From Bdellovibrionales bacterium (GTDB lineage: Bacteria; Bdellovibrionota; Bdellovibrionia; Bdellovibrionales; JAGQZY01): a stretch of 64,000 nt of DNA. Both the position numbers and the translations under genes were made by a program. Under the pieces are notes generated by a model, which was not told where the DNA came from, ran no database searches, and saw only the letters and a program-made list of their open reading frames with translations. This document shows positions 15,493-47,644 of the stretch, piece after piece. Position 1 is the first letter of the stretch; every line of letters starts with the position of its first letter. The DNA lies in NCBI GenBank assembly GCA_965218815.1, contig CBDCLX010000002.1:2918176-2982175 (forward strand), in the 5' to 3' direction.

Positions 15493-15511
15493 ACAGAAAA
15501 AAATTTTCTGT
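15493..15511 (+). terminator. Weak AT-rich hairpin after pepA
   Basis: acagaaaa-aaa-ttttctgt followed by tt. The stem is all A/T-rich, so confidence is low. Confidence 0.3.
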
Positions 15512-15549
15512 TTCAGTATAAAATAGGCGACAAAACTTACCGGGAAAAG

Positions 15550-15816
15550 ATGAAAAAACAATCTTTTATTATTGGAAGGTCCAAGCACTGTGATATAAGA
15601 ATTGATTTTGAAATAGTCAGTCGCAAGCATATTCAGATATTCTTTGAAGATGGGTTTGTCAAAATCATGGATCTGGGTTCCACTAATGGAATATTCCTGA
15701 ACGGCAGAAAACTAACCCCCCACAATAAATATAAATATATGATAGGCAGTGAACTTTTCATCAAAAACAGTGCCGGTCAACGTTGTAATCTTCAAATTCT
15801 CAATAAAAAAACATGA
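15550..15816 (+). CDS. Stand-alone FHA-domain protein (88 aa)
   Basis: IIGRSKHCDIRIDFEIVSRKHIQIFFEDG...DLGSTNGIFLNGRKL. About 80 percent identical (by eye) to the C-terminal domain of the 48491-49654 protein. Confidence 0.75.
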   Translation: MKKQSFIIGRSKHCDIRIDFEIVSRKHIQIFFEDGFVKIMDLGSTNGIFLNGRKLTPHNKYKYMIGSELFIKNSAGQRCNLQILNKKT

Positions 15817-17461: not shown

Positions 17462-18058
17462 ATGATAAGAAAAATCAATGACTTAGCTGATATTTACCCA
17501 GGGCAATCCATTCGTGGAAAAATAAACCATAAACCTGGTGGTGAGTATTGCATTGTCCAGATGAGGGATGTTTCACCTTCCAGGGGCTTTCAGAAGGCCA
17601 ACCTGTGCCGGATGGACCTCAAGTCTGGAACTCCAAAATTGATAAAAAAAGGGGACCTCCTTTTCATTTCAAAAACCGGACCTGGAACCTCCCCCTTCAG
17701 TATTGTTGTGAAAGAGGAAATCAAAAATCTTATCGCCTCACCCCTTTTTTATATCATTCGGGTCAAAAGCAAAGAAGTTCACCCTGAATACCTCAGTTGG
17801 TACATCAATTTCAGTTCCCAAAGTCGAAGATTTTTTAAAAAAAATGCCATGGGAACCATGGTTTTAAATGTTAGAAAAGAGACTCTTTCTGAAATGGAAG
17901 TTATTTTACCACCTCTTTCCATTCAGGAAACATTTGTTGAATTGATAAAACTTGCTTCCAAAGAGCATCAAATCATGGATAAAATCTATCAAAAAAGAAA
18001 ACAGCTTATGAACTCAATAATCACAAATTCCTTTTCCAGAGCAGGAGAACAAATATGA
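17462..18058 (+). CDS. hsdS: Type I R-M specificity subunit, half-size (single TRD)
   Basis: 198 aa with one target-recognition domain plus one conserved helix (LPPLSIQETFVELIKLASKEHQIMDKIYQKRKQL). ATGA overlap with hsdM. Confidence 0.8.
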   Translation: MIRKINDLADIYPGQSIRGKINHKPGGEYCIVQMRDVSPSRGFQKANLCRMDLKSGTPKLIKKGDLLFISKTGPGTSPFSIVVKEEIKNLIASPLFYIIRVKSKEVHPEYLSWYINFSSQSRRFFKKNAMGTMVLNVRKETLSEMEVILPPLSIQETFVELIKLASKEHQIMDKIYQKRKQLMNSIITNSFSRAGEQI

Positions 18059-19563
18059 CGAAAACCACAAAAGTCACCCAGGAGGAAGTGAACCAAATCC
18101 TATGGAAAGCCTGTGATACCTTTCGGGGGATTTTAAACTCCGCTGATTATAAAAACTATATTCTCCCCATGCTTTTTTTAAAATACATCTCCGATACCTG
18201 GGATGAAAAATATGAAAAGATCAAAGCGGAGTACAAAGGAAATAAGAAGCGAATCCAGTCACGACTGAAAAGAGAACGCTTTGTTATCCCTGAAGGTTGC
18301 CTTTTCAAAAACCTCTACGACAAAAGAGAGAAATCAAATGTCGGGGAACTCATCAATACAGCCCTTGAAAAAATTGAAGATGCAAACAAAGAAAAGCTTG
18401 GTGGTGTTTTTAGAAACATAGACTTTAACTCTGAAGCCAAACTGGGGCAGACAAAGGATCGAAACGCCCGCCTGAAACATTTGCTTGAGGATTTCAACCA
18501 CCCAAAGCTCAACCTGAAAATGAGCCATATAGGAAAGCTTGATATTATTGGCAATGCCTATGAGTTTCTCATCAGTCGGTTTGCAGCCAGTGGCGGACAA
18601 AAGGCCGGTGAGTTCTACACTCCGGCGGAAGTCTCAGACCTTATTGCAAGGCTTGTTGAACCACAGAGGGGGGACCGGATCTGTGACCCGGCCTGCGGTT
18701 CAGGCTCCCTGCTTTTTAAATGTGCCAACCAGCTTCTTAAAAAAGGGGAAAAAGACTTTCATCTCTACGGTCAGGAAATCAATGGGGAGACCTACGCCCT
18801 TGCCAAAATGAATATGTTCTTGCACGGGGTGGATAACTCAAAGCTTGAGTGGGGGGATACCATCAGAAACCCCAAACTCATACAGTCCAGGACCACAATA
18901 AAATTTGAAGTGGTTGTGGCCAATCCTCCCTTTTCCCTTGATAAATGGGGTCATGAGGAAGCCTCAAACGATCCTTTTAAGAGGTTTCACCGGGGGATCC
19001 CACCAAAAACAAAGGGGGATTTTGCCTTTATCTCACACATGGTTGAGACCATAACGGAAAACAACGGAAGGGTTGGGGTTGTGGTCCCCCACGGAGTGCT
19101 TTTCAGGGGCTCCACTGAAGCAAAAATCAGACAAAAGCTCATTGAGGAGAACCTTCTTGACACTGTTATCGGCCTTCCAGCCAATTTGTTTTTTGGCACA
19201 GGAATTCCCGCAGCCATTCTTGTTTTCAAGAAAAACAGGAAGGATAACTCTGTTTTCTTTGTTGATGCCAGTTCCGAATACCAGGACGGGAAAAACCAGA
19301 ACAAACTCAGGGAACAGGATATAGAGAAAATTGTAAGAGCCTTCAAAAAAAGAAAAGATGTGGACAAATACGCTTACAAAGCCAGTCTCAGGGAAATCAA
19401 GGAAAATGATTTTAACCTCAACATCCCAAGATATGTGGACACCTTTGAAGAGGAGGAGGAGATCGACATCAAAGCCGTCCAGAAAGAAATTGAAGGTTTG
19501 GAGTCAGAACTTACAAAAGTCCGCAACCAAATGGACAAATACCTCAAGGAGTTGGGGCTGTGA
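18055..19563 (+). CDS. hsdM: Type I R-M DNA methyltransferase subunit
   Basis: HsdM_N-like N-terminus (LWKACDTFRG...YILPMLFLKYISD), SAM motif DPACGSGSLL, catalytic VVANPPFS. Confidence 0.95.
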   Translation: MTKTTKVTQEEVNQILWKACDTFRGILNSADYKNYILPMLFLKYISDTWDEKYEKIKAEYKGNKKRIQSRLKRERFVIPEGCLFKNLYDKREKSNVGELINTALEKIEDANKEKLGGVFRNIDFNSEAKLGQTKDRNARLKHLLEDFNHPKLNLKMSHIGKLDIIGNAYEFLISRFAASGGQKAGEFYTPAEVSDLIARLVEPQRGDRICDPACGSGSLLFKCANQLLKKGEKDFHLYGQEINGETYALAKMNMFLHGVDNSKLEWGDTIRNPKLIQSRTTIKFEVVVANPPFSLDKWGHEEASNDPFKRFHRGIPPKTKGDFAFISHMVETITENNGRVGVVVPHGVLFRGSTEAKIRQKLIEENLLDTVIGLPANLFFGTGIPAAILVFKKNRKDNSVFFVDASSEYQDGKNQNKLREQDIEKIVRAFKKRKDVDKYAYKASLREIKENDFNLNIPRYVDTFEEEEEIDIKAVQKEIEGLESELTKVRNQMDKYLKELGL

Positions 19564-20723
19564 GAAAAAAGAGGAAAGCAAAAAAGAAGGAGAAAGCGAT
19601 GGTTAAAAAGACAACCCAAGCTTCGACCATTCGATCATCTGCGGCTGAATACTTGACCTTTGTAGCCGCCATTGGCGATTCGGAATCCAGTGTTGAGATG
19701 CGTTATGAAGATGAGAATATCTGGCTCACGCAAAAGATGATGGCAACCCTGTATGGCGTTTCGGTTTCTGCAATCAACCAGCATTTAAAGCGGATATTTG
19801 CGGATAATGAGTTGGATGAAAGCTCAGTTATTAAGCAATACTTAATAACTGCCACAGATGGAAAAAACTACAATACGAGGCATTACAACCTGCAGGCCAT
19901 TATTGCCGTTGGTTTTAAGATTGAAAATGAACGTGCCGTTCAGTTCCGTAAATGGGCCAACCGTATCGTAAAGGATTACACCATTCAGGGTTGGACGATG
20001 GATGTGGAGCGTCTCAAAAAAGGCGGTAGCATTCTGGACAACGATTTCTTTGAACACCAGCTTGAAAAGATCAGAGAAATCAGGCTTTCCAAACGCAGGT
20101 TCTATCAGAAAATCACCGATATTTATGCAATGTCATTGGATTACGATTCTACCGCAACTGCAACGAAACGCTTCTTCTCTGCTGTTCAAAACAAAATGCA
20201 CTACGCCGTTCATGGCCAGACTGCTGCTGAGGTCATTGTGAATCGTGCCGATCACAAAAAGGAGAAAATGGGCTTGACCAATTGGGAGGGTACACCAGAA
20301 GGCAAAATCCACAAGTACGATGTAGCCATTGCTAAAAACTACCTGTCTGAATATGAATTGGCACAAATGCAGCGGATTGTATCGGCCTATTTAGATATGG
20401 CTGAAATGCAGGCCATGCGTAAAATCCCCATGACCATGGCCGACTGGGAGGAACGCTTAAGTGGCTTTCTGAAATTATGGGATCGTGAAATTTTAAAGGA
20501 TGCTGGCAAGGTGAGTGCCGAAATTGCCAAAACCCATGCAGAAAGTGAATTTGAAAAATACCGCATTGTTCAAGATCAACTTTATGAATCGGACTTTGAC
20601 AAACAACTAAAAGCACTTGAAGTCCTTGAGAAGGAAATAACAAATCATAAAGGGCAACGCCCTGAATCTACAGAAGAGGATGGGGTCTTATCAAGAAAAA
20701 AACCGCAAGAGGAGAGAGAGTAG
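19560..20723 (+). CDS. rhuM: RhuM-family protein
   Basis: YEDENIWLTQKMMATLYGVSVSAINQHLKRIF...NLQAIIAVGFKIENERAVQFRKWAN is typical RhuM. The real start may be the ATG at 19599. Confidence 0.85.
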   Translation: MRKKRKAKKKEKAMVKKTTQASTIRSSAAEYLTFVAAIGDSESSVEMRYEDENIWLTQKMMATLYGVSVSAINQHLKRIFADNELDESSVIKQYLITATDGKNYNTRHYNLQAIIAVGFKIENERAVQFRKWANRIVKDYTIQGWTMDVERLKKGGSILDNDFFEHQLEKIREIRLSKRRFYQKITDIYAMSLDYDSTATATKRFFSAVQNKMHYAVHGQTAAEVIVNRADHKKEKMGLTNWEGTPEGKIHKYDVAIAKNYLSEYELAQMQRIVSAYLDMAEMQAMRKIPMTMADWEERLSGFLKLWDREILKDAGKVSAEIAKTHAESEFEKYRIVQDQLYESDFDKQLKALEVLEKEITNHKGQRPESTEEDGVLSRKKPQEERE

Positions 20724-24163: not shown

Positions 24164-26695
24164 ATGCTTGATGAAAATAAAACGGATTATTTAATAAATG
24201 CTTTGCAAGCAGGAAAAGTTTCTCTTTTCTTAGGATCAGGTTTTAACGAAGGTTCTCTGACAAACAAAGGTCAGTCAATAGCCGACAACCAAACATTAAT
24301 AAAGAAACTTTGGGAATTCAATGGATACTCTGGAGAGCCTAACCAGGAAGATACATTAACTTTTGTTTATCAGTCCACACTTACAAAAAACCCTAATAAA
24401 TCAGAATTGTCAAATCTTCTGAGAGAGAACTTGGAAGTCAACAGTTATCCTGAGTGGATGAAAATATTACCTCTTTTTTTTTGGAGAAAGATTTATTCAA
24501 CAAACATTGACAACCTTGTGGAAAAAATTTATTCAGACTCTAGCTCCAGTAGAGTTAATTCTCAAATTTTAAATCCAGTAAATGGTCAAACTGATGACTA
24601 TTGTGAACGTGATACGACTTTTCATAAACTAATAAAAGTTTCTTTACATGGCACCTTGGGGAGTGCTCCTGATAAAATCACTTTTGGAATTTTTCAATAT
24701 GCAGCAAGATCTAATGAAAAATATGATCCATGGTATTATGATTTCGTGTATGAATATTCAAATTTTCCATTTATTTTTATTGGTTCAAAATTAGATGAGC
24801 CTATATTTTGGCAGTATTTAGAAGCAAGAAAAGAAAAACATGGTAATCAGGAAAGAAGACCTCGGTCATTTATTATAACTCCAGATATTTCTCCTGCACG
24901 CAAGTATATCTTATCAAAATATAATATTCATCATATTCCAAAAAAAGCAAAAGACTTTTTCCTTTGGTTAAATGAGTTGTTCCCAGAAAAACCAAATCGA
25001 ATGGATGTAATCAAAAAGTCTGAACCTGATCTTATTCTAATTGCAAAAGCTTTAGCTCAAAATGTATCTCGTAAAACTATCAAATCTCTAAAAAGTTTTC
25101 TTGATGAATTCCAAAATGTTAAACCAGTTAAACCAGATCCTGCACATCGTAAAACATTTTTTCATAGTGGAGCAGTGCCAACTTGGCAGGATATTGCACA
25201 TAAGCTGGATGCAAAAAGAGATATTACGGATGAAATTTATGATAATATTTTTTCGATAAAAGAAGATAACAAACCAAAATACATTTTTGTTCATGGAACT
25301 GCCGGTTCAGGGAAAAGTACAGTAGCAAAAAGATTAGCATGGAATCTATCTTCTAACCAATTTCAAGTTTATTTCAATGAAAGCAGTCATATTCCAATTT
25401 TTTCTTTAATCAAAGAGTCAGTTGAATATATTGGTGGTCATCCTATTTTTATTATTGATGATGTTCATAAAAATATTCAATCAAATAAAGACTTTATTAA
25501 AAAATTGAATGACATGAATTTTCAAGCATCTGTAATTGCTTTTTCAAGATCATCAAGTGTAGATAATTTAATTGTTAGTCTTGAAAATTCAGTAGAATTA
25601 AAAGAATACTCCTTAAAAGACCTGTCTCTTTCTGAAATAAAGAATATCTTATCAGTTCTTGATGAAACTGGAATGTTAGGTAAACTTCAGGGGCTACCCA
25701 TGGAGAAAAGGATTGAAGAATTTCAAGTAAGAGCCAAAAAACAAATTTTAGTGGCTATGAAAGAAGCAACACAGGCTAGAGCTTTTGGTGAAATTATTAA
25801 GCAAGAATACAAAGAAATTGAAAATGAAGAAGCTCGCAAACTTTACCTTTTAACTTCCTTAGTAACTGCTCATGGATATTCACTACCAAAAACATTTTTT
25901 ATAGGAGCCATGGATATTGCTCCAAATAAATGTTTAAACTTTTTAAATAGAGACCTGAGAGGTCTTATTATTGATATGAATGAAAAATTTATTGCCAGAC
26001 ACCCTCTTATAGCTGAGCATATCGTATCAACAGTTGAAGACCTACAAACATTAAAGAACTGTTATCTTGATATTCTGAGCAGATTGTCTTCTTTACTTGG
26101 TTTAACATCTAACAAACATGATAAAAATTTTAAAATGTACAAGTCTTTAATTAAGCATGAACTTTTGATAAAATATTTTGGAATAGAGGAATTATATTTT
26201 GTTAGAGAGATATATGACAGTATAAAAGAGAAACGCAAACATGATTTTCACTTTTGGCTTCATTATAGCAATCTTGAACTTGAAAATGACTCCCTGGATT
26301 TGGCTAAAACCTATATCAGTTCAGCAAAATCTTTGTTGGAATCGGCAAATCAGTCAAATGATTTTGTTGAACTTACTGAGATTCAAATTGATATGAAGAA
26401 AGCAATCTATTGTCCTGAATCTGTCGAAGCCAATAATTTATATGAAATCTCCTGTGAAAGAATTAAAATAAATCAGGAGAATTTTTATTTGAAAGCCAAA
26501 AATCAAATGCCCAATACATGGGTGCAATCAAAATTAGGGAATATTTGTGAAATAATACAAGATGGAACTCATTTTTCTCCAAAATCAAAAAGTGGTCCAT
26601 GCAAGTATATCACCTCAAAAAATATTCGGTTTGGAAAGCTAGATATAACAAGTCTTTCTTATATTTCTCAAGAGGAGATGTCCCGTGCAATTTAG
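24164..26695 (+). CDS. SIR2-like / P-loop STAND NTPase / helical-repeat protein (AVAST type 5-like); the ORF runs in frame into the hsdS start
   Basis: SIR2_2-type motifs (VSLFLGSGFN, IYSTNIDNLVE, KVSLHGT, FIFIGSKLDEP). Walker A VHGTAGSGKST (about 25295-25320), Walker B IFIIDDVH, long alpha-helical C-terminus. The last 62 aa are an HsdS N-terminus. Confidence 0.8.
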   Translation: MLDENKTDYLINALQAGKVSLFLGSGFNEGSLTNKGQSIADNQTLIKKLWEFNGYSGEPNQEDTLTFVYQSTLTKNPNKSELSNLLRENLEVNSYPEWMKILPLFFWRKIYSTNIDNLVEKIYSDSSSSRVNSQILNPVNGQTDDYCERDTTFHKLIKVSLHGTLGSAPDKITFGIFQYAARSNEKYDPWYYDFVYEYSNFPFIFIGSKLDEPIFWQYLEARKEKHGNQERRPRSFIITPDISPARKYILSKYNIHHIPKKAKDFFLWLNELFPEKPNRMDVIKKSEPDLILIAKALAQNVSRKTIKSLKSFLDEFQNVKPVKPDPAHRKTFFHSGAVPTWQDIAHKLDAKRDITDEIYDNIFSIKEDNKPKYIFVHGTAGSGKSTVAKRLAWNLSSNQFQVYFNESSHIPIFSLIKESVEYIGGHPIFIIDDVHKNIQSNKDFIKKLNDMNFQASVIAFSRSSSVDNLIVSLENSVELKEYSLKDLSLSEIKNILSVLDETGMLGKLQGLPMEKRIEEFQVRAKKQILVAMKEATQARAFGEIIKQEYKEIENEEARKLYLLTSLVTAHGYSLPKTFFIGAMDIAPNKCLNFLNRDLRGLIIDMNEKFIARHPLIAEHIVSTVEDLQTLKNCYLDILSRLSSLLGLTSNKHDKNFKMYKSLIKHELLIKYFGIEELYFVREIYDSIKEKRKHDFHFWLHYSNLELENDSLDLAKTYISSAKSLLESANQSNDFVELTEIQIDMKKAIYCPESVEANNLYEISCERIKINQENFYLKAKNQMPNTWVQSKLGNICEIIQDGTHFSPKSKSGPCKYITSKNIRFGKLDITSLSYISQEEMSRAI

Positions 26696-27691
26696 TGATG
26701 TTCTTCTCACAAAGGACGGGGCTAATACCGGGAATGCGTCATTAAATACAATAGAAGGTGAATTTAGTTTATTATCAAGTGTTGCTTTATTAAGAGCAGA
26801 TAATAAGAAAAGCTGCAATGAATTTCTTTTACAATATATATTGAGTCCGAAAATGCAATATATTATTAAAAATGAGATGATCGGACAGGCCATAACTAGA
26901 CTAACTTTAAAAAGAATAAAATTGCTTCCAATCATCCTCCCTCCCCTCACAGAACAAAAAAAGATTGCGGAGATTCTTTCAACCTGGGATCGGGCTATTG
27001 AACTGACTGAAAAATTGATTGAAGCCAAGGAGAAGAAAAAAAGAGGACTGATGCAACAGCTCCTCACTGGCAAAAAACGCTTCCCTGGGTTTAGTGGGAA
27101 GTGGGAGAAAAAGAAATTAGATGAGATCGTTGAGTTTTATAAGGGAAAAGGGTTATCCAAAAAAGATATATCAAAAGATGGTTCATTTAAATGTATTCAC
27201 TATGGAGAACTATTTACCAAATACAATGAAAATATAGAAAATATACTCAGTTTTACAGAACATAGAAAAAATATGTTTTTCTCAAAAAAAATGATGTTCT
27301 CATGCCAACCTCAGATGTTACACCTACAGGTCTTGCTACTGCCAGTTGTATCAACGAGGATGATATAATTTTAGGAGGAGATATTTTGATTATTAGATCT
27401 GACAAACGTGTTTTAAATGGAAAATTTCTTTCTTATTTTATAAGGTTTAATAAAAATAAAATTATGCGTTTAGTCTCAGGAACAACCGTTTATCATATTT
27501 ACGGATCTGATGTGAAAACTTTTCAAATATTGCTTCCTTCTAATGAAGAACAAAATAAGATCGTATCAACCCTCTTAAATTCCAATGAAGAGATAAAAAT
27601 TCTTAAAAAGAAATTGAAAAAATTGCATGAATCAAAGAAAGGACTGATGCAACAACTTTTAACAGGAAAAAGAAGAGTAAAGGTCCTTTAG
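26507..27691 (+). pseudogene. hsdS: Full-length (two-TRD) type I specificity subunit broken by two 1-nt frameshifts
   Basis: Three consecutive ORF pieces (26507-26695, 26685-27368, 27302-27691) read as one HsdS: MPNTWVQSKLGNICEII..., central LPPLTEQKKIAEIL...GLMQQLLTGKKRF, C-terminal LPSNEEQNKIV...GLMQQLLTGKRRV. The shifts lie at a C3 run (about 26679-26681) and an A8 run (27284-27291). Confidence 0.8.
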
Positions 27692-27701
27692 GAGATATTT
27701 C

Positions 27702-27935
27702 ATGTCAAAAAGCCGAACATTTTCCTTATATCTTCTCAAAAAGGGCTATAATGCAAGTAATGCATTAAAGCCTGAGAACTCACTCGAAGATATTTCTGAG
27801 AAATGTTCTGCCCTTCCTCAAGGAACCACTCTATATGTTATGGATAAGCCCCCAACCTCCATCGGACGTTTTGGTATGAATAAAAAATATTTTATGAAGA
27901 ATTTCTCATTGAAAGGAGATATTGTTTATGAATAA
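27702..27935 (+). CDS. Hypothetical 77-aa ORF, possibly a truncated remnant
   Basis: The N-terminus (TFSLYLLKKGYNASNALKPENS...) faintly recalls the N-termini of the TIGR04141/DUF6119 'sporadically distributed' proteins. That is a weak recollection only. It overlaps the next gene. Confidence 0.3.
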   Translation: MSKSRTFSLYLLKKGYNASNALKPENSLEDISEKCSALPQGTTLYVMDKPPTSIGRFGMNKKYFMKNFSLKGDIVYE

Positions 27936-28362
27936 AAAAGAGTTAAATACAATAGAAGTGGCAAAAAGTAACTTTAAGAAGAAACTGCTGAGTTTTAAAA
28001 AATCTTTGCAGTCTTTTAAAGAAATTTATTCTTCCTATTTGGAAGAGCCGAATCAAAAAGTTTCCCAAATGGCTTTGATTAAAAGTTTTGAAATTACTTT
28101 TGAATTAAGCTGGAAAACCCTACAGTCTTTTTTAAAGTCCCAGGGCTATATTGAAGAGAACTCACCAAAAGGTGTTATAAAATCAGCCTTTAACAAAGAC
28201 ATTATTGAAAACGGGCAATTATGGATAGATATGCTGGATTCCAGAAATAGATTATCCCATGTTTATGACGAGAGTCTGTTGAATGAAGTGATTCAAAAGA
28301 TTTCCAGAAATTATTTAGAAGAAATAGAAAAACTTTATAAGAAGTTGGAAGAGAAAGACTGA
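27922..28362 (+). CDS. HEPN-type nucleotidyltransferase substrate-binding protein (HI0074 family)
   Basis: FEITFELSWKTLQSFLK...MLDSRNRLSHVYDE carries the R(X4-6)H HEPN motif and the HI0074-family pattern. Confidence 0.85.
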   Translation: MFMNKKELNTIEVAKSNFKKKLLSFKKSLQSFKEIYSSYLEEPNQKVSQMALIKSFEITFELSWKTLQSFLKSQGYIEENSPKGVIKSAFNKDIIENGQLWIDMLDSRNRLSHVYDESLLNEVIQKISRNYLEEIEKLYKKLEEKD

Positions 28363-28664
28363 TGGCTTTTGGTTTATCCCAGGAAACACTTGAACAGTTA
28401 AGAAGTGTGTTTGAAAAATATCCTGAGATTACCCAGGTAAAAATCTATGGTTCACGGGTGACAGATCATTGTAGAAGAGGTTCAGACATTGATCTGGCTT
28501 TTTTTTCTGAATCTGAAAAAAATCTGTCATCCAGTCTTTCATGGGATCTGGATGATCTTCCAAGCCCTTATTTGTTTGATTTGGTCCATTACAATAAGCT
28601 GAACAAATGTTCGTTAAAAGAAGAAATAGATAAATATGGCAAGATTATTTATAAGAAAAATTGA
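28362..28664 (+). CDS. Minimal nucleotidyltransferase (MNT, HI0073-like)
   Basis: KIYGSRVTDHCRRGSDIDLAF matches the GS...D.D polymerase-beta-type NTase motif. The ATG overlaps the stop of the HEPN gene. Confidence 0.85.
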   Translation: MAFGLSQETLEQLRSVFEKYPEITQVKIYGSRVTDHCRRGSDIDLAFFSESEKNLSSSLSWDLDDLPSPYLFDLVHYNKLNKCSLKEEIDKYGKIIYKKN

Positions 28665-28839
28665 GTCCTTGATCTTCTCTAAAACTATAGCAGAGTTTGG
28701 AAGATCAGAGGTTTGTTTCCAGAAAATTGAAAAAGAAGTCACAGGGTCTATGATGTTCGGAATAAAGTTCGGTATAAAGAGAATTTTAGAAGAATTAAAA
28801 AACAGCACTAATCAGATAGAAACCAAAAGGAGACAGCCT

Positions 28840-29694
28840 ATGGTCAGCTTAAAAGAAATCCTCCAACTCCACAGCCAGTGGCTTAAAGTTTGCCCACTGC
28901 CTGAAGAGAACCATCAGGCTTTGTGGAAATGGATTCGTATGCGGTTTAACCATACCTCAAACCATATTGAGGGAAACACTCTCACCTACAATGAAACCCA
29001 ACTGCTTCTCATTCACGGGCGGACTTCAGGGGATCATAAGCTCCGGGAGTATGAAGAAATGAAAGCCCACAATGTGGCCTTTAGCCACATGATGAGGCTT
29101 TCTCAGGAAAAAAGACCTATCAATGAAGGAGATATTAGGGATCTAAATAAAATTTGTCTGAAAGAGCCTTTTTATAAGATGGCCAGGACTCCTGACGGGG
29201 AATCCACACGGAAAAAAATCATCCCTGGAGAGTACAAAACACAACCCAATCATGTTCTTACAGAAACAGGGGAGATTTTTCAGTTTGCCATACCTGAAGA
29301 AACACCATCACTGATGGCGGAACTTGTTCAATGGATGGGTGAATGGCTTAAACAGAGCTTGGAGAATCAACACAAAAATCTTGTTTCTTTTTTAGCTGAA
29401 CTTCATAAGCGTTTTATACTGATTCATCCTTTTGATGATGGAAACGGGAGAGTGGTTCGTCTTTTAATGGGCTATGTTCTTGTTCGCCTGGATTTTCTCC
29501 CTATCATTATTCATGACAGAAAAGAATACATTAAAGCCATACAGTTTTCAGATGCCGGAGACATAAAACCCCTTGAGGAGTTATTTGCCACCAATATAAT
29601 CATGATGCTTGAAAAAGGTCTTCTTGCCAAAAAAAGTCAGATAAATCTTGATGAACCTCTAATGGAGGTCAGGGTTCTTAATTCAGAAAGTTAA
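28840..29694 (+). CDS. Fic-family protein (copy A)
   Basis: HPFDDGNGRVVR Fic motif. The ATG at 28840 has an AAAAGGAGA RBS. About 90 percent identical (by eye) to copy B at 51455-52291. Confidence 0.88.
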   Translation: MVSLKEILQLHSQWLKVCPLPEENHQALWKWIRMRFNHTSNHIEGNTLTYNETQLLLIHGRTSGDHKLREYEEMKAHNVAFSHMMRLSQEKRPINEGDIRDLNKICLKEPFYKMARTPDGESTRKKIIPGEYKTQPNHVLTETGEIFQFAIPEETPSLMAELVQWMGEWLKQSLENQHKNLVSFLAELHKRFILIHPFDDGNGRVVRLLMGYVLVRLDFLPIIIHDRKEYIKAIQFSDAGDIKPLEELFATNIIMMLEKGLLAKKSQINLDEPLMEVRVLNSES

Positions 29695-30337
29695 AAACTT
29701 TTTTAAGAAGTCTGTCAATAAAACCTCTGTCTTTGCGAACTGTTTTAGTTTGAAACCGACAAACGGATCTTTTCGGGAAAGAATTGATGGTCTTTATGGA
29801 ACTAAAAAAATCAAATCCAATGAAGGAATTTAAAAAAGCATGAGAGCCATTCCCCTCTTCCTCCAGGTCCAGACAGGCACAGATGGGTTCAGTATAATCT
29901 TCATAATAAGATGCCTCATAGTTTTCAAAATAGGTCCATTTCCCTTTGGAACTGAAAAAGCCTTCCAAAGTGACATAATCATCATCTTCAAAACGATCCT
30001 CTGCCTGAACGCAAAATTGTCCCGATGAAGTGATAAATTTGATTTTCTCCATAGTATCAAAGCAGGACTCCATGGAAAAAACGGGTCTTCTTGTTGAAAA
30101 GCTGTACTCTTTTTCATCATAAATAAATTGACCCTCCAGGAAGAAAATGTCTTCTGCTTCAGGATCTGGATATCTAAGAGTGATGTGTCCATTAATACAT
30201 TCAAGAGAAGTTAACTTTTTGGAACAAAATGAGACAGGATTTGTAAGAGCCTGTAAAGGACAACAGAATAAAAATGCCAATAAAAATATCAGATTATTCT
30301 CGATGACTTTTGAGTTTTTCATATTTTTTAATAACAT
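29678..30337 (-). CDS. Secreted Cys-containing protein (copy A), partner of the SLT gene
   Basis: Signal-like N-terminus NNLIFLLAFLFCCPLQALT and several conserved Cys. Overlaps the upstream SLT gene by 44 nt. Paralog at 49606-50148. Confidence 0.6.
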   Translation of the reverse strand: MLLKNMKNSKVIENNLIFLLAFLFCCPLQALTNPVSFCSKKLTSLECINGHITLRYPDPEAEDIFFLEGQFIYDEKEYSFSTRRPVFSMESCFDTMEKIKFITSSGQFCVQAEDRFEDDDYVTLEGFFSSKGKWTYFENYEASYYEDYTEPICACLDLEEEGNGSHAFLNSFIGFDFFSSIKTINSFPKRSVCRFQTKTVRKDRGFIDRLLKKVFNFLN

Positions 30338-31073
30338 CTTTAACCTCTCTGTGATCTAAAGTTTTCCTTCCCTTGTACTCCATAACGGCCTCAAGCCAGG
30401 TTGCTTTGACATCCTTCTGTTTGATTTTGGCAGAGGCAATCTCTTTTTTACGAAAAAGCCATCTGACTCCTGCCGCAATATTGAGAACGGGATCGTTAAT
30501 ATCTTTCAGGTCAATTTGTAACAGATGGTTGCGAAGCTCTTTTCTGTAACCTCCCAGGTATTTAACAGTGGATGTTAATATCTGCGTTAAACCGTAAGCT
30601 ATCTGATCTTTTGGTGCAGGAGTTTTAATTTTCGGATCAAAAGAGGATTCAGTCATAATCAGAGCTTTGACAAGATCGGGATCGAGGGGAACTTTTGGTT
30701 TAAAAACATCATTCCAGTATTGGGTCCAGCCTGCAATGAGGGAGTTGAATTTATTTCCCCGACGGGATCCAAGATTGTTTTTACTGATCTTTGATTTTAG
30801 TTTTGGAAAGTACAAATCAGCAATACGGTGAAGTTCATCCTCATACATTACATCCTGGCCTGATGGGTTTTTTACGCAGGCTCCTTTTCTGTAATGGGCT
30901 TTAACCTGATCCCCTTTTCTTAAGTGAGCATCTACATGAGAAGAGCTTCGCCAGTGATAGCCGGGTTGGCATTTTCTCCAGGGGTGTTTTTTGGCTTTCG
31001 GCACAGTCATCCTCCAGGTTCTTTGAAGTTTTTCTAAAAACCCATTCTCTTTGATAATCAGAAAGGGATTCAT
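30294..31073 (-). CDS. Lytic transglycosylase (SLT-domain) protein without signal peptide (copy A)
   Basis: LVKALIMTESSFDP (catalytic Glu-Ser) and AYGLTQI motifs of the SLT/GH23 fold. The basic His/Lys/Arg/Cys-containing N-terminal region is not recognised. Confidence 0.75.
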   Translation of the reverse strand: MNPFLIIKENGFLEKLQRTWRMTVPKAKKHPWRKCQPGYHWRSSSHVDAHLRKGDQVKAHYRKGACVKNPSGQDVMYEDELHRIADLYFPKLKSKISKNNLGSRRGNKFNSLIAGWTQYWNDVFKPKVPLDPDLVKALIMTESSFDPKIKTPAPKDQIAYGLTQILTSTVKYLGGYRKELRNHLLQIDLKDINDPVLNIAAGVRWLFRKKEIASAKIKQKDVKATWLEAVMEYKGRKTLDHREVKDVIKKYEKLKSHRE

Positions 31074-31149
31074 AGATATTTATTATTCAATAAAATCCCG
31101 GTTTTTGGCAAAGATTTATGGAAAATCGGGTTAGGGTGTCATAGTGGAT

Positions 31150-31785
31150 TTATTGACGAAAACAAATGCTGGCATAGTGGGGACACAGGAGGCCGCTTTC
31201 TGAATTAAAACCGCATTCGTCCTCAAAAGAGTCGTAGTTTATTCTGTGGGTTCTCTGTGTATTGGAATTGAGTCCATAACAGATTCCTTCAACAACCATT
31301 TTGGGAACCACACATTTTCTCTCCAGATCCACATACCACTCTTCGGAGGGAAGGCTTTGCCTTATGGTTTGTAATTGATTGTCAGGACTGATGGGGTCAG
31401 GGCTCATGGCACAGCGAATGATGGGGTCACCAACAGGGTTTCCTTCATCATCAAGGGGTTGATAGGTGACGTATTCTGGAAGGACAATCATAAACTGCAT
31501 ATCGTTGGGACAGTCCCAGGATTTCAGATCGGAAATTTTTTTGCGACTGTCGATGATATACTCAGTGATGGAGGCCAGGACCCTGGGAGGCATATCCGGT
31601 CCGGGACTTCCTCCTCCAAGGCGTGTTGGTTGTTTGAAGCGGGGCTGTATAGCCATTCCGAATACATTTTGGCGAATATCATCAATACCAGGGTTATTGA
31701 TAACCTCACGGCCTGTTTCTTTTCGCAAATCCAGGAAAGATCCTGGGTGTATAAGCAGGATAAAAGATATTTTATCAGAGATCAA
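31150..31785 (-). CDS. Hypothetical protein, apparently 5'-truncated; the ORF start lies inside the IS91 remnant
   Basis: The first 13 codons (TTG-start MISDKISFILLIH) are IS91-end sequence that also heads ORF 37852-38124. The remainder is unrecognised. Confidence 0.45.
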   Translation of the reverse strand: MISDKISFILLIHPGSFLDLRKETGREVINNPGIDDIRQNVFGMAIQPRFKQPTRLGGGSPGPDMPPRVLASITEYIIDSRKKISDLKSWDCPNDMQFMIVLPEYVTYQPLDDEGNPVGDPIIRCAMSPDPISPDNQLQTIRQSLPSEEWYVDLERKCVVPKMVVEGICYGLNSNTQRTHRINYDSFEDECGFNSESGLLCPHYASICFRQ

Positions 31786-32130
31786 GATGTATTCCCACCC
31801 CGTTTTCCATGTTTTTTCTGATCTTTTTGCTTTACGAATTCCATTTTGTGTTCATTTGAATGGGGTTTTTCTTGAGAACTTATGATTCCAAACCTGATTT
31901 GATTGGAAAAGTGAATTTTTGAATAAGGGAATCCATCACAGAAAACCCGGGTTCTCCGTCAGAGTTCTCCAATGAAGAAGATTCATGAGAAATCGAAAAC
32001 CTCCTCCTCTTCCGGTGGCCCCCTTGGAGAACAGGGCTCTGGAATTCCTGACTCCAGTCCCAAGTGGGTGAGAATCTTTTTGATGACTTCAGGTCCCTCT
32101 ATGGAAGAGATGACTTTGAGTTTCCCCCCA
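31747..32130 (-). mobile_element. IS91-family remnant A (3' end of tnpA plus the end downstream of tnpA)
   Basis: Near-identical to 38086-38469 of the intact copy. Homology stops abruptly after tttcccccca at 32130. Confidence 0.85.
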
Positions 32131-37883: not shown

Positions 37884-38085
37884 GATCAGACAGAGTATTT
37901 CCAACATTTGTATCAATAGAGAGTAATGTTTTAAAATCAGTGACAATAATAAATCGAGGTTTCTGTTTTTTTATTTTTGGATCATTTTTAATTTTGTCAA
38001 TCAGACCATAAAGATCATCTTGACATTCCACTTTGAAAAATATTTTATTTTTCCAAACTATCTCTCCGGAATTTTTGGAAAGATT
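37852..38085 (-). pseudogene. Possible N-terminal remnant of an MmeI-like (type IIL) enzyme
   Basis: PRFIIVTDFKTLLSIDTNVGNTLSDLKNL resembles the conserved PRYI.VSDF..F.L.D segment near MmeI-family N-termini, as I recall it. It is truncated on both sides. Confidence 0.3.
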
Positions 38086-40063
38086 GTGTATAAGCAGGAT
38101 AAAAGATATTTTATCAGAGATCAAGATGTATTCCCACCCCGTTTTCCATGTTTTTTCTGATCTTTTTGCTTTACGAATTCCATTTTGTGTTCATTTGAAT
38201 GGGGTTTTTCTTGAGAACTTATGATTCCAAACCTGATTTGGTTGGAAAAGTGAATTTTTGAATAAGGGAATCCATCACAGAAAACCCGGGTTCTCCGTCA
38301 GAGTTCTCCAATGAAGAAGATTCATGAGAAATGGAAAACCTCCTCCTCTTCCGGTGGCCCCCTTGGAGAACAGGGCTCTGGAATTCCTGACTCCAGTCCC
38401 AAGTGGGTGAGAATCTTTTTGATGACTTCAGGTCCCTCTATGGAAGAGATGACTTTGAGTTTCCCCCCACACTCCGAACAAACCTCAATGTCCATTCCAA
38501 AAACCCTTTTAAGTCTCCCGGCCCAGTTCATGGAAGAGGATTTTCCGGACTTTGTTGCTTGTTTTTCAGGGCTTTTTGTTTTTGGAGTGATAAGACGATG
38601 GTGTTTGAAATTCGGGGCAAAGATTCCATGAAACCTTATGAGGTTGGTTTTTGGTCTTGGAACAAGGGAAGCCAGTCGTGAGAGAAAGTCCAGAGGATCA
38701 AGGACAATCCGGGTGGTTCCATTCTCATAAGGGGTTTTTAACTGATAAATCACCTTTCCCTGAGAGTTTACTGAAAGCCTTTGTTCACTCAGACTTGGTC
38801 TTGAAATGTAACGACAAATCCTTTCAGGCTTTTCCCTCTGGTGGACTTTTGTAGAAACCCCGGCGTGGAGACTAAAGCCTGAGTGTTTTGACAGAAAAGG
38901 CTTCTCCCTGTTGTTTGTTTCAGGAAGAGTTTTCAGTGTCAGGGCCTTTTGACCTTTGTGTTTTCCAAGGGCTATTCGGTAAGTAATCGATGAGGATTGG
39001 ACCTGGTCCATGGCCGTGGGGCCTGAGTCCAGTGAAAGAAAGGCTGTTCCCCCATCCTTTTCAATGAATCCCCGTTTTTCCAAAAATCTGACCACTCTTT
39101 GAACAAGACTTTTAAGGAGTTTGTCGAGTTCCTGGTTTGAAGGGGGAGTTGTCAATTGAAACTTTGGTCTTCCGTCTTCAAAGCTGTAGACTCCATCGGG
39201 AAACATCATGTGGAAGTGGATATTGAGGTTAAGGCTTCCACCGAAGCGTTGAATGAAAGTCACTGAACCTGTTCTGGCTCCTGACTTTTTAGTGAAACCC
39301 GCTTTTTTGATGAGAAAGGTGCAAAGAGTTCTGTTGACAAGACCCAAAACCTCTCCCATGACTTTGTGGTCTCTGGCAAACAGGAATCTGAGTTGAAAGG
39401 GAAAAGTCAAAACCCACTGTCTCATGGGTTTTTCGGGAAAAACCTCATCAACCAAATGGGTGGCACTTTCAGCCATTCTCCTGGCTCCGCAACTGGGACA
39501 GAATCCCCGTTTTTTGCAACTAAAGGCGACAAGCTTTTCATGGTTGCAGGATGTGCATTGGACTCTTAGAAACCCATGGGCCAGAACTCCACATTTGAGA
39601 AACTCGTCAAATTCCTGTTTCACGAATTCCGGAAGTCCTTTTTCATAATCCCGGTCCATTTGTTGATAGAAGTCCAGAAGATTTTTCTGGATGAGTTTGT
39701 AGAGAAGAGTTTTTTCCGGTTGGTGTCGTTTATAACTGACGGGGGGATTGGAAAAAGCAAATCTATTTGCAAATGAACATTTCATCACAGGAAACATAAA
39801 GGGAGCAAATCAAATAACCATTCCCGTATGCAGTAATCAGTAGTTCAACCACGGTAGACCACCAGATTCAGTGTTTAGTCGTTATAATCAATCTCTGGGA
39901 CAGTGTTTGCGGTTATCGGGAATACTGTTGGACCTGGCGTAGTTGTCGTAATGTTCACAGATGTTCTGAAACAGGGATGTTTGTGAACTGCCAAACTCAG
40001 GACTGTTTGCAATTCTGCGTCTGAGATTTCTTCGAAAATTCTCCCTCAGCCGAAAGAGGCAGA
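38086..40063 (-). mobile_element. IS91-family element, apparently intact copy B (the end upstream of tnpA is not determinable)
   Basis: Contains the complete tnpA. The end starting GTGTATAAGCAGG at 38086 is shared with four other copies. The other boundary is set only by where unrelated fragments begin (40064). Confidence 0.7.
38322..39797 (-). CDS. tnpA: IS91-family (Y2/HUH rolling-circle) transposase
   Basis: N-terminal zinc-binding domain (CTSCNHEKLVAFSCKKRGFCPSCG), a core typical of the IS91/IS801 family, and a C-terminal CSECGG zinc ribbon. Confidence 0.92.
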   Translation of the reverse strand: MFPVMKCSFANRFAFSNPPVSYKRHQPEKTLLYKLIQKNLLDFYQQMDRDYEKGLPEFVKQEFDEFLKCGVLAHGFLRVQCTSCNHEKLVAFSCKKRGFCPSCGARRMAESATHLVDEVFPEKPMRQWVLTFPFQLRFLFARDHKVMGEVLGLVNRTLCTFLIKKAGFTKKSGARTGSVTFIQRFGGSLNLNIHFHMMFPDGVYSFEDGRPKFQLTTPPSNQELDKLLKSLVQRVVRFLEKRGFIEKDGGTAFLSLDSGPTAMDQVQSSSITYRIALGKHKGQKALTLKTLPETNNREKPFLSKHSGFSLHAGVSTKVHQREKPERICRYISRPSLSEQRLSVNSQGKVIYQLKTPYENGTTRIVLDPLDFLSRLASLVPRPKTNLIRFHGIFAPNFKHHRLITPKTKSPEKQATKSGKSSSMNWAGRLKRVFGMDIEVCSECGGKLKVISSIEGPEVIKKILTHLGLESGIPEPCSPRGPPEEEEVFHFS

Positions 40064-41296: not shown

Positions 41297-41603
41297 TTAC
41301 TGGTAAGATAATACCACAGAGCTTTTACAAAAACAATCCAGAGATAAAACCTTTATTTTATAGATGCTGCTAGCTTGAATTTCAAAAAATCCAGTTTCCT
41401 GAGACGACGATCCGTCTCTTTCATCTGACGATCTGTCTCCTTCTGACTGGCAGACTGAGGTTCCGCAGCAAGGATCTTGATCGCTCACCCGTTTCAGCCG
41501 AAAGGGTCTTGATCTGCTTGCCTGTCTCCGCCTGACTGGTCGAAACTTCCCTCAAAATACTCCAGATTTCATCGGGTGTTGGAATGGATGGTTGATTGGT
41601 CAT
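41297..41603 (-). pseudogene. Tandemly duplicated, frameshifted 5' fragment of the DUF3782-like gene
   Basis: 41385-41603 repeats 42035-42250 (MTNQPSIPTPDEIWSILREVSTSQ... versus MTSQPSIPTPDEIWSILREVSTSQ...). An indel breaks the frame. Confidence 0.65.
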
Positions 41604-41614
41604 TTCAGACTCCT

Positions 41615-42250
41615 TCAGGCAAAGGCTTTGGGTTTGAAGTTTTTTGCGTTAATGATGGAGGCACTGCTTCCCGTGGCACGGATTACAAACAAACCTCTGT
41701 TCTCTGAGTTTCCCTCTGTTCCCTCATTGGCTTTCAGGTAGGCTACAGCCCCGTAAACAGTCCTGTCCCTATACTCCGGCAAAATCTGTTTGAACACTTT
41801 AAGTTTTTCTGTGAACTTTTCCAGGTCCTTGAGTTTTAAAGTGGTCTTGACCTCCACCACCACAACCTCATCCCCATTGATGGCAATAATGTCAAATTCA
41901 TACTGTTTTCCATTCCACCGACGTTCATGTTCTTTCGCAATTCCGTTGACCTGAATGCCACGGGTATTGAGCAATTCGACCAAATCCCCTTTGACCAGAG
42001 CTTCCATAAGTTTGCCCCACTGTCCGGTAAAAAGATCATCCAGTTTCCTGAGACGACGATCCGTCTCTTTCATCTGACGATCTGTCTCTTTCTGACTGGC
42101 AGACAGTTCTGCAGCAAGGGTCTTGATCTGCTCACCCGTTTCAGCCGAAAGGGTCTTGATCTGCTTGCCTGTCTCCTTCTGACTGGTCGAAACTTCCCTT
42201 AAAATACTCCAGATTTCATCGGGTGTTGGAATGGATGGTTGACTGGTCAT
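41615..42250 (-). CDS. DUF3782-like protein: N-terminal coiled coil plus C-terminal PD-(D/E)xK-like domain
   Basis: Repetitive N-terminus (ETGKQIKTLSAETGEQIKTLAAE...KETDRQMKETDRRL). C-terminal EFDIIAINGDEVVVVEVKTTL fits a D...E.K nuclease-fold motif. Confidence 0.65.
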   Translation of the reverse strand: MTSQPSIPTPDEIWSILREVSTSQKETGKQIKTLSAETGEQIKTLAAELSASQKETDRQMKETDRRLRKLDDLFTGQWGKLMEALVKGDLVELLNTRGIQVNGIAKEHERRWNGKQYEFDIIAINGDEVVVVEVKTTLKLKDLEKFTEKLKVFKQILPEYRDRTVYGAVAYLKANEGTEGNSENRGLFVIRATGSSASIINAKNFKPKAFA

Positions 42251-46236: not shown

Positions 46237-46367
46237 CTATTTTATCTAATGCAATAAATAAATCAGTAACTAAAGTTAGGTAAAAGAAAAAATATCTGGT
46301 GGTTCCAGACCAAAAGCTAGTAAGTATAGAGAAACCCCTTAAAAAATCAAATACGAATAGCCATTTT

Positions 46368-47079: not shown

Positions 47080-47283
47080 CTATCTAATTTATGTGTGGGT
47101 TATGCAGAGTATTCAATTGATAATCCTCCTGGCGATAGGGGTATTATCATTGGTGTTCCAAGTGAACCGGCACCTCACGACACTAATAGTACTCCTCCAA
47201 TGGAACCAGGGAACTTTTAAAAGCAAACAAAGAGTGACATCCAGCCCATGAAAAGAAGGGCTGGATGAGACTTTTTCTGGACG

Positions 47284-47520: not shown

Positions 47521-47644
47521 AGAGGGTTTAGGAGAAAAGTGTTCGTGACCCCCATTTCGACGCTCTTTTTGGAGTACTTTTGATCGGGAATAGTGGAAGG
47601 GGCTCTTGTGTTTTGGAAGAGCAGGAAAATTCTTAGATGGGAAA

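Follow-up and report, generated by a model that had tools for sequence, protein, structure and literature searches.

Pesticin is a muramidase that is taken up into the periplasm from outside, and Pim, the protein that confers immunity to it, is periplasmic (PMC3390615). In Bdellovibrio, Bd3460 protects the cell's own wall from the cell's own endopeptidases (PMC4686830). Here, we analysed a stretch of 64,000 nucleotides (nt) from a Bdellovibrionales bacterium (assembly GCA_965218815.1, contig CBDCLX010000002.1, positions 2,918,176 to 2,982,175), referred to below as the window, which holds two copies of a gene pair that invites comparison with both systems. The first gene encodes a lytic transglycosylase (LT) and the second an apparently exported protein, which we call the partner. 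The strongest regularity in our data is a contrast of compartments, in which a leaderless and intact wall enzyme is almost always coupled to an exported protein. Our tentative interpretation, to which we give slightly less than an even chance, is that the pair is a bicistron specific to Bdellovibrionota that encodes a peptidoglycan toxin and its periplasmic immunity protein.

A repeat search and a DNA alignment of the window showed that the two copies, called module 1 and module 2, belong to a single collinear repeat on the minus strand (29803-31117 versus 49614-50929), in agreement with the duplicated block of about 1.3 kb in a preliminary description of this DNA. The repeat extends from about 45 nt ahead of the longest LT open reading frame (ORF) to a point within the partner gene, and the copies share 91% amino acid (aa) identity in LT and 68% in the partner. 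The longest LT ORFs both encode the 259 aa given in the preliminary description, but the gene probably starts at a downstream GTG (31004 and 50815), which would give a protein of 236 aa that begins with MPKAKKHPWRKC. This GTG is preceded by a GGAGG ribosome-binding site and lies 69 nt past the first ATG, which almost coincides with the predicted transcript start; the public gene calls (P0001 and P0198) take the GTG, and the alignment of LT homologs begins at the same point. For the partner, the start is most likely the second ATG (MKNSK; 30322 and 50133), and the overlap of the two genes is therefore 29 nt, while the 44 nt reported before applies to the longest ORFs. The same −29 overlap was found again in several homologous loci. 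In both copies a promoter-like site falls inside the conserved block, at the start of the repeat.

Divergence between the two window copies was estimated by the Nei-Gojobori method as synonymous (dS) and non-synonymous (dN) substitution rates. LT gave dS 0.375, dN 0.037 and dN/dS 0.10, the whole partner dS 0.72, dN 0.21 and dN/dS 0.30, and the partner core dS 1.0, dN 0.22 and dN/dS 0.22; both genes are under purifying selection in both copies. The history of the modules is mosaic, because partner 1 is nearer to the partner at locus L012 of a related metagenome-assembled genome (MAG; dS about 0.34-0.38) than to partner 2, while the closest relative of LT 1 is LT 2. A recent segmental duplication is ruled out by this mosaic history together with dS values of 0.38 (LT) and 0.72 (partner), and the sequences indicate that the two copies are old paralogs, both of them maintained. 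Further copies, which the preliminary description had suggested looking for, do occur in the source genome: outside the window it holds at least one more full LT (P0002) and a fragment, which makes at least three full copies altogether. The source genome, a contig of 3.04 Mb, has as its closest relative the Bdellovibrionales MAG that carries L011 and L012.

By profile, motifs and modelled fold, the catalytic domain of LT is assigned to family 1 of the SLT/GH23 enzymes, and lytic transglycosylase activity is predicted for it. The Pfam profile SLT (PF01464) matches aa 130-210 of the two copies with 38.8 and 41.1 bits (cut-off 21.3), and it also matches 49 of 50 extended LT homologs. The window LTs carry the motifs TESSF and YGL(T/M)Q; in an alignment of 50 LT homologs E119, G138, L139 and Q141 are invariant and S120 is present in at least 90% of the sequences, and the third family-1 motif reads E-Y-K-G. 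An AlphaFold2 model of the copy-2 sequence, built on 50 homologs, reached a predicted local distance difference test (pLDDT) of 94.3 and a predicted template modelling score (pTM) of 0.89. In this model, residues 16-54 fold into seven short strands (pLDDT above 90) that make up a small domain, and the remainder adopts the all-alpha LT fold. Foldseek returned consistent but weak matches to LTs and lysozymes, among them phiKZ gp144, Slt70, MltE, MltC, Bdellovibrio DslA, EtgA and Tse3 (probability about 1.0, E about 1e-3, TM-score 0.35-0.5) as well as matches to phage LTs, including PRD1 P7 and Ralstonia phage RSF1, with E values down to 9e-7; all of these span the catalytic domain only.

A leaderless LT endolysin, such as lambda R, followed by secreted or lipoprotein genes is a classical phage arrangement. 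The module could accordingly be read as the remnant of a lysis or entry cassette of a phage or mobile element, with an endolysin-type LT and a spanin-like or accessory secreted protein, and the presence of phiKZ gp144, PRD1 P7 and Ralstonia phage RSF1 among the best fold matches, together with weak matches to lysis and tail families of PHROGs, would suit such an origin. We consider it highly improbable, since there are no relatives of the LT family in 2.9 million IMG/VR viral contigs; holins, small ORFs rich in transmembrane segments and phage structural genes were not found nearby. The partner has neither a C-terminal transmembrane segment nor a spanin architecture, and at hundreds of chromosomal loci purifying selection acts on the two genes.

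Ahead of the catalytic domain, LT carries a basic mini-domain in which W, R, C, G, C and N are invariant (alignments A2 and A7), including two conserved cysteines; its histidines are not invariant. A profile of the N-terminal 55 aa found no match in Pfam or among PDB sequences at E values up to 10. The whole protein is basic, with an isoelectric point (pI) of 9.9, and the short N-terminal tails of the family consist of 26% lysine and arginine. A signal-like N-terminus is absent from the window LTs and from all of 189 family members. Maximum hydropathy ahead of the WRxC motif has a median of −0.20 in these 189 proteins, and the one member that reaches at least 1.8 does so in a stretch within a fused N-terminal extension of about 100 aa (DUF4325-like class). 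LT also has no transmembrane segment (maximum KD18 1.79).

Two explanations that the preliminary description had named as objections do not hold. A cryptic signal peptide is rejected, also with an alternative start, as the 259-aa and 236-aa N-termini are both non-hydrophobic and none of the 189 homologs is signal-like. A housekeeping autolysin of the Mlt/Slt type is ruled out by the lack of a Sec signal or lipobox, the multiple copies, the restriction to one phylum, the weak and generic fold matches, and the variable island flanks; these are rich in toxin–antitoxin and insertion sequence (IS) genes, and the LT gene is not single-copy in a conserved context.

A different reading would place the role of LT in the cytoplasm, away from peptidoglycan: the basic mini-domain, which may hold zinc, would have nucleic acid or another polyanion as its ligand, and the partner would be co-transcribed and not a direct interactor. 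The lack of an export signal in all 189 homologs agrees with this, as do the resemblance of the lysine-rich tail and the Cys/His-rich mini-domain to a zinc knuckle and the fusion of LT to cytoplasmic RNA-targeting or nucleotidyltransferase domains described below. Nevertheless, we find it very doubtful, as the catalytic Glu-Ser and the GLxQ of wall-cleaving LTs are strictly conserved, and the near-universal linkage to an exported protein, which persists even where the partner gene is inverted, and the opposite charges of the two proteins argue for a functional pair. The variable histidines of the mini-domain also count against this reading, and GH23 enzymes are not known to have a cytoplasmic substrate.

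The mature partner is acidic (pI 4.8) and is preceded by a hydrophobic N-terminus; some members of the family carry a lipobox in place of a type I signal. Four cysteines are invariant among 32 partner homologs and probably form two disulfides, and the motifs that recur in the family are W-x-C-F, F-x-x-R-R, F/V-C and G-x-W-x-Y-F. The AlphaFold2 model has a core at aa 30-135 (pLDDT about 90) composed of four strands, a helix and three strands; in the window clade, the core leads into an acidic tail that is disordered, and the protein ends in an amphipathic helix. In partner 1 this helix comprises aa 199-213 (29678-29740; GFIDRLLKKVFNFLN) and, judging from the model, it may be a membrane anchor. 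The helix is also present in P0124 and at L012 and is missing from copy 2, which lacks the entire C-terminal tail that copy 1 has in common with these two; the gene of partner 2 overlaps the 3' end of a convergent FHA gene. Foldseek against the PDB gave only weak matches of the oligonucleotide/oligosaccharide-binding (OB) fold, namely RPA, HIN domains and the B subunits of AB5 toxins, all with E above 0.02. Searches of Pfam, NCBIfam, PADLOC, PHROGs and PDB sequences returned no match for the partner family, and it shows no sequence or fold match to Ivy, MliC/PliC or PliG/PliI. The main traits read from this DNA beforehand, that is, SLT motifs in a protein with no signal peptide and an unrecognised basic N-terminal region, and a signal-like N-terminus with conserved cysteines in a partner of unrecognised family, are thus all borne out.

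The distribution of the pair was evaluated in a collection with one genome per species, which yielded 404 LT loci, of which 80 were retrieved and inspected. Nearly all of the inspected loci are labelled Bdellovibrionota, with labels that include Bdellovibrionales, Bacteriovoracaceae, Halobacteriovoraceae, Pseudobdellovibrionaceae, Oligoflexia and Silvanigrella. Locus L016 carries the label of a Flavobacteriaceae MAG, but the LT and partner found there are closely related to those of loci of the Bacteriovoracaceae/Peredibacter type (compare L019), and the contig is probably mis-binned. A word-seeded search found 148 LT relatives, and an exhaustive profile search of 1.84 billion representatives delimited an LT family of 196 clusters at 50% identity (E up to 1e-30), the largest member of which has 479 aa.

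A coupled downstream ORF on the same strand was present at 74 of the 75 loci with a delimitable LT ORF, and the exception lies at a contig end. The gaps between the two genes range from −31 to +9 nt, mostly −4, −16 or −29, with a few fragmentary loci outside this range. The downstream ORFs typically encode 110-300 aa, and a strongly hydrophobic N-terminus was found in 70 of 74 (69 of 77 partners in a second count). At one further locus (L104) the partner gene lies on the other strand and converges on the LT gene, whose 3' end it still overlaps. Consequently, the co-occurrence of LT and partner in other genomes, on which the preliminary description had made its proposal depend, is general.

Most of the downstream partners form one very divergent family, with identities down to about 14%. 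A profile of this family found 77 more proteins, all unnamed and none with a Pfam domain; the few for which a source is named come from Bdellovibrionota. A metagenome scan with one subfamily of the partner returned 11 loci. On average, identity over 1,711 pairs of loci is 50% for LT and 27% for the partner, so that the partner diverges about twice as fast, and where two LTs are at least 80% identical the identity of their partners spans 0.34-0.99. At no fewer than six loci (L049, L059, L064, L070, L071 and L085) the place of the partner is taken by exported proteins of a non-homologous class, which are about 270-290 aa long and share the motif WTGGAHCC(H/F) and repeats that resemble D-x-D-x-D-G, and the LTs at these loci are ordinary family members. 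Partners also occur without LT: at L098 after an AbiEi/AbiEii pair, at L100 directly after an XRE gene, and in the case of P0152 after HigB/HTH. Clustering of the flanking ORFs of about 70 loci revealed no third conserved gene, and only assorted toxin–antitoxin genes recur.

This distribution bears on the possibility that LT is a peptidoglycan-remodelling enzyme of the producer itself, active in the predatory or envelope cycle after non-Sec export (e.g., by flagellar type III) or after release by prey lysis; the partner would then be a periplasmic regulator, inhibitor or chaperone, similar to Ivy/MliC, which control lysozymes and LTs, or to Bd3460, the guard of Bdellovibrio against its own DacB endopeptidases. 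The LT family is restricted to and widespread in Bdellovibrionota, both genes are under purifying selection, the closest NCBIfam match of LT, a weak one, is a flagellar-assembly LT, and Bdellovibrio uses dedicated self-protection proteins against its own wall-modifying enzymes (PMC4686830). However, we judge this reading distinctly unlikely, as LT is multi-copy, variable in position, located in mobile islands beside IS elements and absent from conserved operons, its partner is swapped or solo, and the family also occurs in lineages not known as predators (MAGs labelled Silvanigrella and Oligoflexia). Moreover, the known predatory wall enzymes of Bdellovibrio have Sec or lipoprotein signals (PMC10127604). 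If LT were an ordinary regulated autolysin, the value of the present results would lie in better genome annotation only.

In other genomes, the flanks of LT are dominated by small toxin–antitoxin genes (XRE, HigB, RelE, YafQ, BrnT, ParE-like, MNT, HEPN, AbiE and Fic), which are often co-oriented with LT at gaps of −10 to +7 nt. About one third of the LT family carries an N-terminal extension. Among 50 representatives of the extended LTs, nine have an MNT nucleotidyltransferase, five a STAS-like DUF4325 domain, three a HepT RNase with an intact Rx4HxY motif and one a YhcG nuclease, while the rest fall into unknown classes; two unannotated extension classes are marked by a KIPFFDT motif and by a coiled coil with a KFPKV motif. 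The HepT-LT fusions have an MNT gene just upstream, and an MNT-LT fusion has a HEPN-type gene upstream, an order that recurs in the window at 27922-28664. HEPN/HepT and MNT are the most frequent fusion partners and neighbours of LT, and in operons of the type MNT / HepT-LT / partner every toxin-type domain stands beside its own presumed neutraliser. We know of no precedent for a wall hydrolase that is fused repeatedly to HepT, MNT and STAS-like domains.

Such surroundings would suit another role, in which the module, like those of defence islands, serves suicide or addiction (by abortive infection or in the manner of a toxin–antitoxin system) and a cytoplasmic LT is held in reserve, often with HEPN-MNT, XRE or AbiE-type modules. 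A breach of the inner membrane or a trigger such as phage infection would let LT reach the wall and hasten lysis, and the exported partner would buffer leakage or act as a periplasmic guard. The window modules do lie between parts of a type I restriction–modification (R-M) system and beside Fic, SIR2-STAND, HEPN/MNT and PIN genes; elsewhere HigB, RelE, YafQ, BrnT, XRE, MNT and AbiE genes abound in the flanks, often in the same operon, and the fusions HepT-LT (with intact Rx4HxY), MNT-LT and DUF4325-LT are old and conserved. On the other hand, LT has no way across the inner membrane, given that neither a holin nor a transmembrane segment was found, and solo partners, as well as an inhibitor placed in another compartment than its toxin, are hard to explain if the toxin is self-directed. 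Interbacterial toxin/immunity pairs, too, are typically located in islands. No model of PADLOC-DB 2.0 matches LT or the partner, which counts against this role and rules out a known anti-phage defence system. Overall, we regard this suicide or addiction role as unlikely. A type II toxin–antitoxin system is rejected in view of the predicted cleavable signal or lipobox and the four conserved cysteines of the partner; being exported, the partner cannot serve as a cytoplasmic antitoxin.

Under the toxin/immunity interpretation, the first gene would give a basic LT with intact GH23/SLT motifs that is made in the cytoplasm and, having no export signal, could not reach the producer's own peptidoglycan. 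The second gene, which appears translationally coupled to the first, would give an acidic Sec-exported partner, soluble or lipid-anchored, that would bind and block LT in the periplasm. In this way the partner could shield the cell from LT arriving from outside, after its release or injection by kin or by the same cell in the course of predation, and from LT that has leaked. If the two proteins interact, LT must enter a periplasm by a non-Sec route, as wall-directed bacteriocins and contact-dependent effectors do. We infer the binding of LT by the partner, its inhibition, the toxicity and localisation of LT, and its exit and entry into a target periplasm.

We rank toxin/immunity first because it fits the solo partners, the faster divergence and replacement of the partner, the opposite charges of the two proteins (pI 9.9 versus 4.8) and the MNT / HepT-LT / partner operons. 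The arrangement by which an effector/immunity pair would be recognised, a wall hydrolase with no leader beside an exported partner in the same orientation, is conserved at 74 of 75 loci, and partners on their own (L098, L100, P0152), an alternative partner class and variable partner identity are what is looked for in an immunity gene. The effector/immunity proposal of the preliminary description is therefore partly supported, by the compartment contrast, the linkage and the solo or swapped partners, but not in its appeal to the neighbouring Rhs gene as a context of antagonism: a fragment of an IS91 element (31745-32130) lies between, the adjacency looks incidental, and the real setting is a defence and toxin–antitoxin island. 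Nor did the delivery genes for which it had proposed a search come to light in the window or in the flanks of about 90 loci.

Several observations weigh against the toxin/immunity interpretation. In the window and the flanks of about 90 loci we found no type VI secretion system (T6SS), extracellular contractile injection system, type IV secretion system, TonB box, receptor-binding domain or lysis gene that could account for delivery; within the 64 kb of the window this holds for T6SS core, VgrG, PAAR, Hcp and adaptor genes and for N-terminal markers of the MIX/FIX type. About 70 non-redundant loci, whose flanking ORFs were not all scanned against Pfam, showed no recurrent flank family of the T6SS type, and the best 150 of 1007 LT representatives contain no fusion to PAAR, VgrG, Rhs or other trafficking domains. 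The fold of the partner matches no inhibitor or immunity family in the PDB (Foldseek). The two invariant cysteines of the mini-domain could form a cytoplasmic zinc site instead of a disulfide. Finally, the constant neighbours are toxin–antitoxin and defence genes, and LT is fused to cytoplasmic HepT, MNT and DUF4325 domains, which is unusual for a secreted effector. These weak points are serious, and they give some weight to a defence or addiction role.

The N-terminal mini-domain could be an unrecognised uptake module. A bolder reading, which we hold to be rather unlikely, is that Bdellovibrionota possess a wall-targeting weapon or defence system not described before, built around this pair, with a novel route to the periplasm and often wired to HEPN-MNT or DUF4325 by fusion. 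The polycationic LT could travel by self-promoted uptake or export through its basic mini-domain, or along an injection path linked to predation, and the fast-evolving OB-fold protein would be the periplasmic antidote. The fusions would make a composite system in which a cytoplasmic toxin–antitoxin switch leads to cell-wall lysis.

The gene pair, well supported and phylum-wide, poses the question of how a leaderless wall hydrolase gets to the wall. Should the pair be a toxin with its immunity protein, it would add three unannotated families to a predator phylum (the leaderless LT, the four-cysteine OB-like partner and the WTGGAHCC partner class) and point to an unrecognised route of protein delivery or uptake in Bdellovibrionota. 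It would also offer natural examples of enzymes that degrade the wall from outside, each with a specific inhibitor, and these can be useful for enzybiotic design. The fusions to HepT, MNT and STAS-like domains provide a testable link between cytoplasmic toxin–antitoxin switches and envelope lysis.

The modules are embedded in a rearranged island of defence and mobile-element genes, which occupies about 16-56 kb of the window between housekeeping genes and is flanked by a leucyl aminopeptidase gene that ends at 15478. The order of the island is Fic; hsdS, hsdM and RhuM; an ISL3 transposase; a SIR2-STAND NTPase; a second hsdS; the HEPN-type and MNT genes; Fic; and module 1. It continues with the IS91 end fragment, Rhs with an ankyrin-repeat gene, the intact IS91, PIN, an Hjc-like nuclease and a deaminase, and it closes with IS91 remnants, an FHA membrane protein, module 2, Fic, and HsdR with YgjP. 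The scattering of the type I R-M components suggests an operon that was split by insertions and rearrangement. The IS91 end fragment that separates module 1 from Rhs covers the annotated GTG start of the Rhs gene (32064; 1480-aa ORF), which is therefore probably 5'-truncated or IS-driven, and transposition most likely brought Rhs and module 1 together by chance. The HEPN/MNT pair may or may not be functionally linked to module 1, and the Fic proteins near the modules are SoFic/PDC-S04-like. The coordinates of these features are given in Table 1.

Table 1. Positions of the gene pair, its neighbours in the window and examples of LT fusions at other loci.
Feature	Position	Strand	Description
LT copy 1, longest ORF	30294-31073	-	259 aa
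LT copy 2, longest ORF	50105-50884	-	259 aa
LT copy 1, probable start	30294-31004	-	236 aa from GTG; lysine-rich tail, N-terminal mini-domain, predicted family-1 (GH23) LT domain
LT copy 2, probable start	50105-50815	-	236 aa; same sequence as P0001
Mini-domain of LT copy 1	30840-30995	-	aa 4-55; basic, short beta strands; HPWRxCxxGxHW...C-x-x-N-x-S-x-x-D
Partner copy 1, longest ORF	29678-30337	-	219 aa
Partner copy 2, longest ORF	49606-50148	-	180 aa
Partner copy 1, most likely start	29678-30322	-	214 aa from MKNSK; predicted signal peptide, OB-like core, acidic tail, C-terminal helix
Partner copy 2, most likely start	49606-50133	-	175 aa from MKNSK; C-terminal tail missing where the repeat ends
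Promoter-like site, copy 1	31082-31111	-	TTGCCA, 18 nt spacer, AATAAT; consensus match
Promoter-like site, copy 2	50893-50922	-	TTGACA, 18 nt spacer, AACAAT; consensus match
HEPN-type (NTase_sub_bind/HepT-like) and MNT pair	27922-28664	+	Pfam and PADLOC matches; about 1 kb from module 1
IS91-family element, intact	38322-39797	-	Y2 transposase with zinc-binding domain; element 38084-39797
IS91 partial copies	31745-32130, 46366-47090, 47644-48365		91-99% identical
Type I R-M: hsdS, hsdM, RhuM	17462-20723		
Type I R-M: second hsdS	26685-27368		
Type I R-M: hsdR	52294-55491		
Fic genes	28636-29694, 51455-52291		85% identical; edges of the intervening ~22 kb
LT fusion examples	L007 4673-6598; L009 4151-5990; L104 1834-3714		also P0042, P0078, P0249-P0253

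Some further features of the island deserve a record. The SIR2-STAND gene is an 843-aa ORF (24164-26695) with SIR2-like and novel STAND NTPase domains, an Avs-like defence architecture; its last 60 or so aa match type I specificity subunits, and the ORF seems to run into an hsdS fragment. A protein of 489 aa (44767-46236, minus strand) has a C-terminal domain of the cytidine-deaminase type with weak matches to MafB19-like and Bd3614-like toxin deaminases, and may be another toxin of the island. Directly upstream of LT copy 1 and outside the repeat lies a 211-aa ORF (31150-31785, minus strand) without a family match, which is richer in GC than its surroundings and has a cysteine-rich C-terminus; as its start falls inside the IS91 fragment, a disrupted gene may have left it as its 3' portion. 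The 300 nt after the leucyl aminopeptidase gene (15499-15798) are 83% identical to the 3' end of the FHA gene (49313-49612) and may be a remnant of an earlier arrangement of the island. Upstream of the second Fic gene, a 68-aa ORF (51214-51420) matches the N-terminus of a 495-aa protein that adjoins the LT module in L011 (2066-3553), and the counterpart in the window appears truncated. The segments 41389-41603 and 42038-42250, in and upstream of the ORF of the Hjc-like nuclease (41615-42250), are 97-99% identical and about 648 nt apart, and represent a local tandem duplication.

Compared with described systems, the mini-domain, the partner family, the alternative partner class and the HepT, MNT and DUF4325 fusions have no counterpart in the libraries and literature that we searched, and we found no description of the LT/partner family in that literature. 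Several known systems share parts of the design of the module. HepT-MNT (type VII) systems are frequent neighbours or fusion partners of LT, but LT/partner is not itself a HepT-MNT system and its second component is exported. The family-1 LTs Slt70, MltC, MltD, MltE, gp144 and PRD1 P7 have the Glu-Ser, the G-L-x-Q and the goose-lysozyme-like all-alpha fold in common with the LT described here, which differs in lacking a signal peptide or lipobox, in a unique mini-domain that packs on the catalytic domain, and in its third motif (E-Y-K-G instead of A-Y-N-x-G); the fold similarity is generic. Ivy, MliC/PliC, PliG and PliI resemble the proposed partner in that they are small, exported or lipid-anchored, often disulfide-bonded blockers of lysozyme-fold active sites in the periplasm. 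These inhibitors are usually stand-alone proteins directed against host lysozymes, in contrast to a partner that is translationally coupled to a leaderless LT.

In the same phylum, the DD-endopeptidases Bd3459 and Bd0816 and the ankyrin protein Bd3460 provide a case in which a wall enzyme of a predator is neutralised by an adjacent periplasmic protein (PMC4686830). The LT described here is leaderless, multi-copy and island-borne, and its partner is OB-like with four cysteines instead of the ankyrin repeat of Bd3460. Bd3459 and Bd0816, for their part, have Sec signals, and each is a conserved predation gene present singly. The T6SS pairs Tse3/Tsi3, Tge/Tgi and VgrG3/TsiV3 are similar to LT/partner in joining small leaderless wall-degrading effectors to a downstream, often overlapping, periplasmic immunity gene, in their scattered bicistrons and in their solo immunity genes, and Tse3 is among the weak fold matches of LT. 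In contrast to these pairs, LT/partner shows no association with T6SS, MIX, PAAR, VgrG or Hcp in the window and the flanks of about 90 loci. T6SS is not known to be a general feature of Bdellovibrionota.

The logic of LT and partner matches that of pesticin/Pim of Yersinia pestis and of colicin M/Cmi, in which the toxin is harmless in the cytoplasm of its producer. The folds are different, as LT is of the GH23/SLT type, whereas pesticin is T4-lysozyme-like and colicin M is a lipid II phosphatase. The partner is unrelated in sequence to Pim and Cmi, and for the LT module neither domains for receptor binding or translocation nor a TonB box or a plasmid context could be recognised; in their place stands an N-terminal mini-domain of 50 aa with two conserved cysteines and no known homolog. 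By analogy, the module would work like a pesticin/Pim or Tse/Tsi pair, while being a member of neither group.

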